6,597 nucleotides of DNA from Promethearchaeia archaeon (GCA_046497275.1 JAWOFX010000132.1:1-6597), one strand, 5' to 3'; numbered from the stretch's first letter, positions 127-6,597 are shown. Made by a program: numbers and translations. The notes: generated from the letters alone by a model not told the origin.

Positions 127-705
127 ATGAATTCATCTATGGAAGATCTCAATAAATTTTTAAACGAAATTTTAGAAACTAATTCGGAAGTAAAATCTGC
201 CCTAATTGTAACTTTCGAGGGATTACCTATAGCATCAACTTCAACTCTAGGAAGTGATGATGTGAAAGTTTCTGCCATAACAACAGTTCTTGAATTTTTA
301 TCGGATCATTTAGTTATAGAAATGAATATTGGCGAATTAGATCAGGTAAATTTACAATGTTCAAATGGATATTTAATTTTAAAATTATTAGGTCCAAACG
401 CAATATTAGCCCTCTCAACCACCAAAGAAGTAAAATTAGATTTACTTTTTTCTGATCTCTATCATAAATTTAAAGAAAAAATTGATGAAGCTTTTAAAGA
501 AATTAAAGATCTAATGAACGAGCAAAATTCCTCTACTTTGAATTTAAATCGAAATTATCTTCTTGAGCTTTTTGATGAAAATCTTATCGAAACTCATAAG
601 GATGGATATCCCCAAGTAAAGGAATTTTTAAAGCAATATTTTTTATTTGGCGGAATGAAAATTGAATATTCTGGAGATTTAGTAAAAATTAGTAAAATAT
701 TCTGA
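127..705 (+). CDS. Roadblock/LC7 (MglB/LAMTOR-like) domain protein with ~60 aa C-terminal extension
   Basis: 192 aa ORF. Residues ~5-125 follow the archaeal Roadblock pattern: VKSALIVTFEGLPIAS (cf. xxxAxxxxxDGLxIAS), helix KVSAITTV, GELDQVNLQCSNGYLILKLLGPNAILALST, and KLDLLFSDL. The start could be ATG 127 or ATG 139. Confidence 0.85.
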   Translation: MNSSMEDLNKFLNEILETNSEVKSALIVTFEGLPIASTSTLGSDDVKVSAITTVLEFLSDHLVIEMNIGELDQVNLQCSNGYLILKLLGPNAILALSTTKEVKLDLLFSDLYHKFKEKIDEAFKEIKDLMNEQNSSTLNLNRNYLLELFDENLIETHKDGYPQVKEFLKQYFLFGGMKIEYSGDLVKISKIF

Positions 706-3009: not shown

Positions 3010-4254
3010 TTATAGTTTTAAACTAAAAATAGGGGTCAATCTTGCCGCCATTTTTCCCAGATTCAACTGAAGTGCTTTCAAAACTACTTCCCTTTTTCTA
3101 TATTCAAATTGTAAATCGGAAACAACTCTAACGATTTTTAGTCTTTCCTTACTTCTTTTTAATCGACAAACAAAATACCGTTGATCTTTATATTCTAAAA
3201 CATTGATTACTTTTTCGATGTCTGGAAATGAATAACCCGCTCCATGAGGCAAAATATTAGCATTTTTTAATCTGTGTAAAACACCACATCTTTTTGCCCT
3301 TTCATAGAATTTTAAATTCATTAAGGTAGTTTCAGAAAGGTTATGTAATCCTTCAAATAAGTAAGCTGATAAATCTGCTCTTAAAGCAATTGGAAATATA
3401 TTCGAGTTTATAAATTTATTTTTGACATCAGTACAATTACTTCCTAAATATATACTATTATAATCCTTTAAGAATTGATGAGGCTGATTACAAATAATAT
3501 CATAATGATTTCCATAGAGTTGCTGAGCAATTATTTCCCTTTTTTTACAAGAAAATTCCAAGACTTTCTTATTTATCTCAAAATACTTATCTGCGTCTGA
3601 ATCTAATAGAATATATTGAGTACCTAATTGAGTTTCTTCCTTAATTGCCATATTTTTAAGATTTTTTGATTTATCGATATAAACGCCCATTCCATATTTA
3701 TCATCTCGTAATTCTGGAGCTGAACCATGAATCAAACAGATATAGGGAGGATATTCAATTTCAGTAAGATTGTTAGTTTTATAAAAACTAATAAAATGGT
3801 TACTAGTTCCAAAATCCCAATCTAGATGAATATCATCAAGATATAATTCCTTAGACTTTATCTCATCAATTTTTTTAATAAGATCATATGGATTCATCAT
3901 ATCCCATAATCCAATAACTAATATCCCACAATGATTCGGTTTTGTATTTAGAAAGATAAGTTTATCCTCTCCTGATCCCCATACGAGCTTACCTCCATAT
4001 CCAAATCCAGAATTCCATCGATATTGGTTTCTGGATATTGTCTCATCTGGAGAAGAGATAAATAAAGCATTTGGGTCAAATCCATATTTTTCTTGGATGA
4101 TATGCATCTGAGCAAGCCCATATTTCATATTCCATTGACAAAGACTTGACGTACCGTCATTTAAACCAGTTGAAAAAATAAATTGGGTACTTCTCTCTAA
4201 TAGTTCTTTTTTTGATAAACTTGAGATCTTTTGATTTATAAATTTTGGTTCCAT
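3010..4254 (-). CDS. Highly divergent RtcB-family (RNA 3'-phosphate/cyclic-phosphate ligase fold) protein
   Basis: 414 aa. Motifs occur in RtcB order: SPD70, NHC109G, GTSN152H153F154, LIH176GS, the helix EFSCKKREII, PH259Q, PH337GAG, EY385R and C-terminal RLTPIFSLK413L. These match the RtcB PD, DINCG, GSGNHF, HTGS, NFAWANR, AHN, CHGAGR, AYK and LRPIxxxKG motifs. The assignment is by eye, so no gene symbol is given. Confidence 0.8.
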   Translation of the reverse strand: MEPKFINQKISSLSKKELLERSTQFIFSTGLNDGTSSLCQWNMKYGLAQMHIIQEKYGFDPNALFISSPDETISRNQYRWNSGFGYGGKLVWGSGEDKLIFLNTKPNHCGILVIGLWDMMNPYDLIKKIDEIKSKELYLDDIHLDWDFGTSNHFISFYKTNNLTEIEYPPYICLIHGSAPELRDDKYGMGVYIDKSKNLKNMAIKEETQLGTQYILLDSDADKYFEINKKVLEFSCKKREIIAQQLYGNHYDIICNQPHQFLKDYNSIYLGSNCTDVKNKFINSNIFPIALRADLSAYLFEGLHNLSETTLMNLKFYERAKRCGVLHRLKNANILPHGAGYSFPDIEKVINVLEYKDQRYFVCRLKRSKERLKIVRVVSDLQFEYRKREVVLKALQLNLGKMAARLTPIFSLKL

Positions 4255-5048: not shown

Positions 5049-6287
5049 TTGTTGTTATGGGAAAATAAGAAACAGAAATTTTTAAAAATCCTAAAGATTG
5101 GAATGAATCCCTTTAGAAGATTTGTAGCTACAGGTGAAATCACAGAACATTTGGGTTTGGTTGATTCCAGAAGAGAACTTTTAACCAATATAAAAACAAT
5201 AATCGGTGAGGATGAAAATTTTATTCTTCCACTCATAGGGGAGATTGGTGTTGGTAAAACACATTTATTCTGGGCTTTAAAATCTGAAGTTAGACTTCAA
5301 TTCAATACAATTTATATTTCACTAGATAACATCTACAAGAAATTCTACTATAATCTTTATTCTGAATTTATAGATGAATTGGGACTTATAGAATTAAGGA
5401 GAATAACAAATAATCTATGTAATAAATGGGGGGCATACAAAAAGAGATATGGGTTTTTTCAAGTTGTAGATATGCAAAAAGCACGAAAAAATGCATTTAT
5501 CGAATGGAAAGACTCATTTTCTAATATAACTGCTCTTGAAGAAGCGATTAATGTTATTACATGTCATCAATTGGATCCTTATAACAAAATTGAGGCTGAA
5601 AATTATTTACTCGGTGAATTGATGAATATCAGAGAACTTTTAATGCTTAATGTGGAAAATGATCTAAGAAAAAAACAAAATGCCTATACTATGCTAAAAA
5701 TTCTTATTGAAAATTCTAAATATGGAACAATCATATTTATTGATGATTTCGAAATAATTATTTCATTATTAAAAGGAGAAGAGGAAAAAGAGACGTATTT
5801 TGATTCTAGTTGGCTTTATGGAGCTGAAGAGTCTCCCGATAGTATTGCAGCCAAGAAGATTTTAAAAAAAATAATGAATTTATTGAATATTAAAGGATTA
5901 AGAATCATTATTACCTTAAATTCGGTTAAATCTTTAGAAGAAATAAAAGAATTGATTACTGAGAAAAACAAGGATTTCTTAATGATATTTAAAAAACCTC
6001 GTTTTCTGTATAAGTTTGAAAAAGAGGATATTTTTAATTTCTATAAAAATAATATGAAATTATTTTTAAAAAATGTCAAGCGCCCTCACCTTTTAGAAGA
6101 AATAGAAAATCCATATTATCCACTCAATGAGGAGCTACTTAAAAAAATTTATAACAAAACAAATGGTAATCCTCGTAAGATTATAAAGGCCCTAATTGAG
6201 ATCTTTAATAAGATTATTTACGATAATAAAGAAATTGAAGAAATATTAAAGGAAAATAATACAGATGAATATATTAGAGATTTCTAA
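5049..6287 (+). CDS. P-loop NTPase, AAA+/BrxD (DUF2791)-like
   Basis: Walker A is GEIGVGKT (res 64-71, nt 5238-5261) and Walker B is IIFIDDFE (res 228-235, nt 5730-5753). It also has a sensor-1-like IIITLN and the lid motif YPLNEELLKKIYNKTNGNPRKII (GNPR at nt 6165-6176). The long helical insert between the Walker motifs, with AENYLLGE, recalls BrxD-like ATPases. The start is TTG 5049/5052 or ATG 5103. Confidence 0.85.
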   Translation: MLLWENKKQKFLKILKIGMNPFRRFVATGEITEHLGLVDSRRELLTNIKTIIGEDENFILPLIGEIGVGKTHLFWALKSEVRLQFNTIYISLDNIYKKFYYNLYSEFIDELGLIELRRITNNLCNKWGAYKKRYGFFQVVDMQKARKNAFIEWKDSFSNITALEEAINVITCHQLDPYNKIEAENYLLGELMNIRELLMLNVENDLRKKQNAYTMLKILIENSKYGTIIFIDDFEIIISLLKGEEEKETYFDSSWLYGAEESPDSIAAKKILKKIMNLLNIKGLRIIITLNSVKSLEEIKELITEKNKDFLMIFKKPRFLYKFEKEDIFNFYKNNMKLFLKNVKRPHLLEEIENPYYPLNEELLKKIYNKTNGNPRKIIKALIEIFNKIIYDNKEIEEILKENNTDEYIRDF

Positions 6288-6597
6288 GCAGAATTCTCTG
6301 ATAAGTATCAATTTCCTTTAGGAATTCTTCCTTATGTTTAATATTCCATTCGGAGTTTTCAATTCTTTCTCTGAATTTTTCGACATTGATAACAGATTGA
6401 AAAAATAAAGTTAATATTGTTCTGAACGCTTGCTTATTTATATCTTTAAATGTCTCTTGATTATCAAGAATTTCGAATAATTGTTTTTCATTCTTAATTT
6501 GGTTTTGTAATATTTTTTTGCAGTTATTTAAAACCTCAGAATCTCGGGTATCCAAGCCTATTAATAAATTTTTAATAATATTAAATTCGGGATTTTT
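6274..6597 (-). CDS. 3' end of a gene entering from the right edge (partial); predicted alpha-helical protein of unknown function
   Basis: The frame has no stop between 6597 and the TTG at 6555 and reads KNPEFNIIKNLLIGLDTRDSEVLNNCKKIL... The 93 aa ORF in the track is therefore probably the C-terminus of a longer protein. Its end overlaps the ATPase 3' end by 14 nt (6274-6287). Confidence 0.7.
   Translation of the reverse strand, partial: KNPEFNIIKNLLIGLDTRDSEVLNNCKKILQNQIKNEKQLFEILDNQETFKDINKQAFRTILTLFFQSVINVEKFRERIENSEWNIKHKEEFLKEIDTYQRILLRNL

Follow-up and report, generated by a model that had tools for sequence, protein, structure and literature searches.

What does an RtcB-like protein do when the residues with which RtcB recognises its nucleotide and its RNA appear to be changed, in a genome that also encodes canonical RtcB ligases? 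The question is raised by P0001, a protein of 414 aa encoded on the minus strand (3010-4254) of a 6,597-nt stretch of DNA from a Promethearchaeia archaeon (GCA_046497275.1 JAWOFX010000132.1:1-6597; the whole stretch is called the window below, G+C about 28%). A first-pass annotation had described six motifs of this protein in which the metal ligands and the nucleophilic His are kept and the base- and substrate-contacting residues are systematically changed, and had proposed that the enzyme may use another NTP or a different substrate. All six quoted motifs were present at the expected codons of the ORF; five of them lie within the span given for them (3232-3801, corresponding to N152 to Y341), and the sixth, KPNHC (3928-3942), lies outside it.

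The other genes of the window encode a Roadblock/LC7 protein of 192 aa (127-705, plus strand; domain in residues 16-96, followed by a C-terminal extension of about 95 residues without a family match), methionyl-tRNA synthetase (MetRS; 911-2968, plus), a 212-aa protein without a family match that is divergent to the P0001 gene (P0003; 4393-5031, plus), a P-loop ATPase of 412 aa (P0004; 5049-6287, plus), and an ORF of at least 107 aa (6274-6597, minus) that exits the right end of the window. The MetRS and P0001 genes are convergent, with their stop codons about 40 nt apart; in other Loki genomes this spacing is 1-2 nt, and 82 of 83 close loci have the two genes in convergent order.

Fold, distribution and paralogues

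No Pfam, NCBIfam or PDB sequence match was obtained for P0001, permissive thresholds included (Pfam to E 0.1), and pairwise BLASTP against the RtcB of its own genome returned nothing significant. P0001 does not belong to PF01139, and among 83 relatives only one touches this family (E 0.007). An AlphaFold2 model built with an alignment of 83 representatives (pLDDT 96.5, pTM 0.94) was searched against PDB with Foldseek, and the best 16 matches were all RtcB (E 1.5e-7 to 3.5e-5, prob 1.00). In a Foldseek-independent comparison with 48,161 PDB chains by VIA-align, the model matched T. thermophilus RtcB (2epg) with Z 21.5 and rmsd 3.4 A over 309 residues, the best non-RtcB fold reaching only Z 4.3-4.8; against ten RtcB entries the values were Z 19-22 and rmsd 3.3-3.4 A over 306-321 residues. 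The structural alignment with Pho (P. horikoshii) RtcB runs end to end (model 17-414 against Pho 17-481, the last residue), i.e., the RtcB fold is found over the whole chain of the model. The label "RtcB-like" therefore holds at the fold level, although sequence searches do not recover it.

Profile comparisons pointed in the same direction: in a search of PDB with the family profile, P. horikoshii RtcB ranked first (E 0.002), and hhalign aligned the family with 18 canonical Asgard RtcBs over 236 columns (prob 79.8%, E 1.5e-5). Global hhalign misaligned the N-terminal half of P0001, and local alignments of sub-regions were used instead; those of the N-terminal and middle thirds are colinear with RtcB and individually not significant. 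P0001 has the whole-chain fold and motif order in common with RtcB (PF01139; structures 4dwq, 2epg and 7p3b from P. horikoshii, T. thermophilus and human) but is only 13-16% identical to it and shorter (414 versus about 481-490 aa). P0001 is RtcB-like, though by fold only. Its family is a variant of the RtcB fold that is absent from the profile libraries (Pfam, NCBIfam), and a literature search found no description of it. On balance, we lean towards placing P0001 in a family of its own within the RtcB superfamily, recognisable by a "PNxCG" motif.

There are 597 close homologues, almost all of 414 aa, 63-79% identical, from Lokiarchaeota/Promethearchaeota metagenomes and all labelled "hypothetical". 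An exhaustive search yielded 238 representatives at the 50% clustering level, and a genome scan restricted to close relatives found a relative encoded at 111 loci. The family profile detected the gene in 83 of 201 Asgard genomes, some with 2-3 copies, and in 38 of the 40 genomes searched in the window's own family. Structure-based Atlas neighbours belong to clusters in which Altarchaeota (TM 0.90), Myxococcota, Chloroflexota or Bacillota predominate, taxa that are to be taken as leads only. A cluster look-up for the distant relatives returned neither names nor taxa, and no match was obtained by tblastn in collections of phages and plasmids. Lokiarchaeia orthologues of P0001 are 60-66% identical, compared with 67-75% for the adjoining MetRS, and the mean column identity among Loki orthologues is 77%. 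This conservation shows strong selection on the family in those archaea that are the nearest relatives of eukaryotes.

P0001 is not the housekeeping ligase, because the same genome has two canonical PF01139 genes (571 and 553 bits, with all classic motifs), one of them beside archease. The latter (G000 contig C145:7959-9723; L002, L126) is convergent with the archease gene, which is the classic tRNA-splicing pair, and the second canonical RtcB gene is located on contig C100. RtcA is also encoded in this genome.

Catalytic core, guanine pocket and RNA-binding surface

Residues of P0001 were mapped onto RtcB by hhalign and local alignments (PhoRtcB numbering), and their conservation was counted in 83 relatives at 21-63% identity. 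In RtcB, Mn1 is bound by Cys98, His234 and His329 and Mn2 by Asp95, Cys98 and His203, and His404 is the guanylylated residue (PMC9745838); in PhoRtcB the His-GMP bond is made by Asp65 and His404 (PMC3973293). All Mn1 ligands have equivalents in P0001: C109 in the KPNHC motif (residues 105-109; 3928-3942, minus) corresponds to the bridging Cys98 (C in 79/83), H176 (3727-3729, minus; family-profile and hhalign alignment) to His234, and H259 in the PHQ motif (residues 258-260; 3475-3483, minus) to His329, the last equivalence being drawn from a weak local alignment and colinearity; both His are invariant (83/83). The nucleophile His404 corresponds to H337 of the HGAGY motif (residues 337-341; 3232-3246, minus), which is invariant within P-H-G-x-G (H337 83/83, G338 79/83, G340 82/83), and Asp65 corresponds to D70 (4045-4047, minus; D in 78/83, local hhalign). 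In the NHFIS motif (residues 152-156; 3787-3801, minus), N152, H153 and F154 match Asn202 (N in 80/83), His203 (H in 83/83) and Phe204 (F in 81/83), and S156 occupies the position of Glu206.

The Mn2 site appears incomplete, with H153 and C109 present and P106 at the position of Asp95 (P in 66/83), followed by N107 (N in 72/83); N107, D147 and D33 are candidates for a substitute ligand, and the next residue of the motif, H108, is not conserved (A/C/G/T in relatives). On the alignment, P0001 keeps the Cys/His/His/His metal centre, the nucleophilic H337, D70 as the Asp that assists formation of the His-NMP, and N152 as the Asn in contact with the triphosphate and with the hydroxyl that attacks; the residues of the chemistry are strictly constrained with one exception, the replacement of Asp95 by a conserved Pro. 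What the first-pass annotation had said of the nucleophile was borne out, and its statement that the metal ligands are kept is right for the Cys and the three His and wrong for Asp95. The exception may be of consequence: the D95A mutation abolishes ligation by PhoRtcB, archease rescuing its guanylylation defect (PMC3973293), and therefore the chemistry of P0001 may differ more from that of RtcB than assumed.

Outside this core, some positions are replaced by residues that are themselves conserved and others vary. Asn202 and Asn330 of RtcB are phosphate contacts, Asn330 touching the gamma-phosphate (PMC9745838); the Asn330 position is Q260 in P0001 (Q in 53/83, E in 10, H in 8). The position of Arg408 is Y341 (Y in 59/83). 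IYLGSN (residues 268-273; 3436-3453, minus), the positional equivalent of HRKGA by hhalign and local alignment, has an invariant G271 (83/83) and a frequent L270 (68/83), its remaining positions, 268-269 included, being variable. The Glu206 position is likewise variable (N24, D13, E13, S7, A7, G7; D or E in 26/83), with S or N among close Loki orthologues. The description "systematically changed" thus fits the positions with a fixed replacement (P106, N107, Q260, G271, Y341) and not positions 156, 268-269 and 180, and at position 156 the homologues vary in the way expected of drift.

Could the altered motifs as a whole result from drift under relaxed constraint, in an RtcB paralogue that is decaying or has no catalytic role (a pseudoenzyme or scaffold)? 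The freely varying positions (the Glu206 position, 268-269 and 180) and the loss of the Asp95 metal ligand would be in line with this. We nevertheless consider it very improbable, because the catalytic residues (four invariant His, and near-invariant Cys, Asn, Phe and Asp) persist in relatives down to 21% identity; moreover, the column identity among Loki orthologues is close to the conservation of MetRS, and the gene is nearly always present in genomes of the same family. The substitutions at 106/107, 260 and 341, being conserved in their own right, form a signature of the family and do not reflect drift.

With respect to the nucleotide, Lys480 of RtcB reads O6 of guanine and Glu206 reads N1/N2 (PMC9745838), and the guanine-touching side chains are Phe204, Glu206 and Lys480 (PMC3973293). 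F154 and K413 (the penultimate residue; 3016-3018, minus; K in 46 and R in 13 of 83, the C-termini aligning end to end) preserve the first and the last of these. The PhoRtcB loop Gly379-Thr383 packs on the guanosine (PMC8051266). PIALRADLSAY (residues 288-298; 3361-3393, minus) is the equivalent of the guanosine-pocket loop IPGTMGxxSY, shortened by 2 residues, with P288 in 73/83 and Y/F298 in 65/83. Tyr451 of RtcB may also stack on guanine; Y385 of P0001 is conserved in the family. The claim that base-contacting residues are changed is therefore correct for the Glu206 position and the pocket loop and incorrect for F154 and K413, and D70 is retained too. A loss of GTP specificity appears overstated, because two of the three guanine contacts persist and the third position varies freely and is often acidic; the shortened and rewritten guanosine loop gives the proposal of a different NTP weak support.

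The surface with which RtcB binds RNA is altered as well. In PhoRtcB, the residues that hold the 5'-OH strand are Asn202, Arg238, Arg190 and Gln194 (PMC8051266). In the alignment of P0001, the three contacts other than Asn202 are lost: Arg190 is replaced by D140 and Gln194 by L144, neither conserved in the family, and Arg238 by P180 at a variable position. Three residues from P180, a basic residue (K/R183) is conserved in 76/83, which might compensate. The lobe with these strand contacts lacks about 60 residues, in the segment that joins the Cys motif to the NHF motif (residues 128-193 of P0125 correspond to 137-139 of P0001), and a helical insertion of about 20-30 residues precedes the nucleophilic His (residues ~303-333). 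Because the RNA-strand-binding arginines and this lobe are gone and Arg408 is a conserved Tyr, we slightly favour the reading that P0001 is an RtcB-superfamily enzyme in which H337 is charged with a nucleoside monophosphate in the RtcB manner, acting on a substrate other than tRNA-exon ends.

Alternatively, P0001 might be a third GTP-dependent RNA 3'-phosphate/5'-OH ligase, a paralogue specialised for the repair or splicing of a particular RNA, in which the changes tune the choice of RNA and not the chemistry. The full RtcB fold and the retention of the core residues, F154 and K413 agree with such a ligase. Archease rescues not only D95A guanylylation but also the guanine-pocket mutants F204A, E206A and K480A, and lets RtcB use ATP, dGTP and ITP (PMC3973293); the genome of P0001 encodes archease. 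The missing equivalents of Arg190, Gln194 and Arg238, the missing lobe, and the conserved Tyr and Pro in place of Arg408 and Asp95 argue against it, and together with the neighbours described below they make a third RNA ligase unlikely in our view.

Genomic neighbours and fusions of the family

In the Loki clade, the ATPase and 212-aa protein genes diverge from the RtcB-like gene, which converges with MetRS. In the 83 close loci, MetRS is a neighbour in 82, the 212-aa protein in 74 and the ATPase in 68. This order is gone in relatives at 22-44% identity, and it may therefore be no more than inherited gene order. MetRS, the 212-aa protein and the ATPase were considered as obligate partners and rejected, the synteny being restricted to the close Loki clade.

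For P0003, neither Pfam nor NCBIfam gave a match and the Atlas gave no lead; the protein is 44-68% identical across the Loki loci. Its AlphaFold2 model (pLDDT 82) consists of two tandem small beta-barrels, and about 45 of its 50 best structure matches are Sm/LSm/Hfq proteins, but their scores (Z 5-6.8) fall short of Z 8 and of the level that excludes a common arrangement. This weak resemblance of the divergent neighbour to two Sm/LSm-like barrels would suit an RNA ligase. No sequence similarity was found between P0003 and the HD protein encoded at the same position in sister clades. In the ATPase P0004, GVGKTH forms a Walker A motif, and the AAA, IstB and NACHT-helical matches are all weak; a homologue in another Asgard family (L115:6686-8332), with weak ATPase_2, STAND and BrxC/D matches, is located by the HD neighbour of the RtcB-like gene.

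No phosphoesterase genes adjoin the RtcB-like gene in the Loki clade to which the window belongs; they do so in other clades. In a deep Asgard clade, the RtcB-like gene lies in an operon between a metallophosphoesterase (528 aa) and a glycerophosphodiester phosphodiesterase-type gene (GDPD; 247 aa, 25-nt gap) at 14-15 loci. In the exemplar of this operon (L088:4426-8142) and 13-14 like loci (L089-L099, L123-L125), about 300 C-terminal residues of the metallophosphoesterase lie outside any family match, and in some loci a Ras-family small GTPase is encoded a few genes downstream. A metallophosphoesterase also adjoins the RtcB-like gene in two families of the window-clade subgroup; in one family of this subgroup (5 loci) an HD phosphohydrolase is encoded directly upstream, often with a DAO flavoprotein downstream, and one further family has HD and GDPD neighbours. 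CpdA/SpdA-like metallophosphoesterases occur among these neighbours.

Beyond Asgard, the gene after that of one relative encodes a HAD phosphatase, and PolX, an NTPase and RtcA are encoded at a distance of 3 kb from another relative (L087). In a 743-aa protein, an APH-type kinase is fused to the RtcB-like domain; the cluster that encodes it also contains genes for HAD hydrolases, two radical-SAM enzymes, an aminotransferase and an SDR. In the Atlas, a cluster of 936-aa proteins carries the annotation calcineurin-like phosphoesterase (Metallophos), and its match to the P0001 model (TM 0.72 over 357 residues) suggests an RtcB-like/Metallophos fusion; a search with the family alignment for longer, fused forms found none, a result that we rate as weak evidence. 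The shared theme of these neighbours, enzymes that make or remove phosphate ends, is suggestive, the clades concerned being few (about 4) and related, so that the association is not a statistical one.

These neighbours bear differently on the alternatives. RtcA and PolX near L087 fit ordinary RNA repair and hence an RNA ligase, whereas neighbours such as GDPD, HAD and DAO, and the kinase of the APH fusion, do not serve as partners in RNA repair. They would rather suit an enzyme acting on a small molecule, in which a phosphomonoester or cyclic phosphate (e.g., glycerol phosphate, a deacylated lipid head group, or a 2',3'-cyclic or 3'-nucleotide) is activated as an NMP-diphosphate and joined to an alcohol. 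In favour of this are the operon with GDPD, the CpdA/SpdA-like metallophosphoesterase, HD phosphohydrolase and HAD phosphatase neighbours, the fusion of the domain to a small-molecule type of kinase in a biosynthetic-looking cluster, and the loss of the RNA-binding arginines. Metallophosphoesterase and HD domains, however, also heal RNA ends in known repair systems, as in Pnkp and the CCA-adding enzymes; none of these neighbours occurs in the window's own clade, and no RtcB-fold enzyme is known to act on a non-nucleic-acid substrate. We regard this small-molecule activity, taken as a full account of P0001, as doubtful.

Proposed reaction and candidate substrates

For the favoured reading of P0001 as an RtcB-type enzyme with a substrate of its own, the reaction can be outlined as follows. 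H337 would be charged with a nucleoside monophosphate from a purine NTP, as in RtcB; GTP is the most likely donor, because the equivalents of Phe204 and Lys480 persist, and discrimination between nucleotides is probably looser. The acceptor of the NMP would then be a phosphate monoester or a cyclic phosphate that has been opened, and attack of a hydroxyl on the activated phosphate would yield a phosphodiester. The tRNA-exon ends are presumably served by the two canonical RtcBs of the genome, and the phosphoesterases beside or fused to relatives would make or remove the phosphate ends. The earlier proposal of a different substrate is in this respect partly and indirectly supported, by the lost strand contacts and lobe, the Tyr at the Arg408 position, the canonical ligases and archease in the same genome, and the links to phosphoesterases and a kinase.

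As to what the substrate might be, a special nucleic-acid or nucleotide end comes close to an even chance, on account of ancestry and of the RtcA/PolX and Sm-like neighbours. A small phosphoester, e.g., a glycerophospho compound or a cyclic nucleotide, is a possibility to be taken seriously, given the lost arginines, the GDPD, HAD and DAO neighbours and the APH fusion; something else altogether seems rather improbable. The metallophosphoesterase and HD neighbours fit both of the first two.

To our knowledge, the chemistry of RtcB, in which a phosphate end is activated with GMP on a histidine, has been described for no ends other than those of RNA and DNA, and for a single, tightly conserved family. 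The family of P0001, which no profile library recognises, has this fold and a predicted equivalent of the catalytic core, together with a rebuilt substrate surface and recurrent links to phosphodiesterases and a small-molecule type of kinase. Its substrate would show how far RtcB chemistry reaches, and would assign a role to a gene that is conserved in Asgard archaea and at present annotated as "hypothetical". A bolder version of the proposal, to which we attach little probability, is that P0001 is the first RtcB-fold enzyme acting on a non-polymer substrate, a nucleotide-dependent, phosphodiester-forming ligase for small phosphoesters that works in a cycle with GDPD, metallophosphoesterase or HD enzymes and is near-universal in Lokiarchaeia.

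Two kinds of known systems can be compared with the family. In Pnkp-type enzymes (kinase, calcineurin-like phosphoesterase and ligase), as putatively in the P0001 family, an operon or a fusion links a ligase-type domain with a metallophosphoesterase or kinase, a likeness by analogy: the Pnkp ligase has an adenylyltransferase fold and its kinase is a P-loop polynucleotide kinase, whereas the ligase-type domain of the P0001 family has the RtcB fold and the fused kinase is APH-type. Myxococcus xanthus RtcB1-3 and E. coli RtcB2-PrfH are recognisable PF01139 members with canonical motifs, unlike the P0001 family, which neither Pfam nor NCBIfam recognises. Like P0001, these bacterial proteins are RtcB-fold paralogues additional to a housekeeping enzyme, and they differ among themselves in RNA/DNA ligation and capping (PMC10630183), a precedent for specialised paralogues on which an RNA-ligase function of P0001 could also draw.
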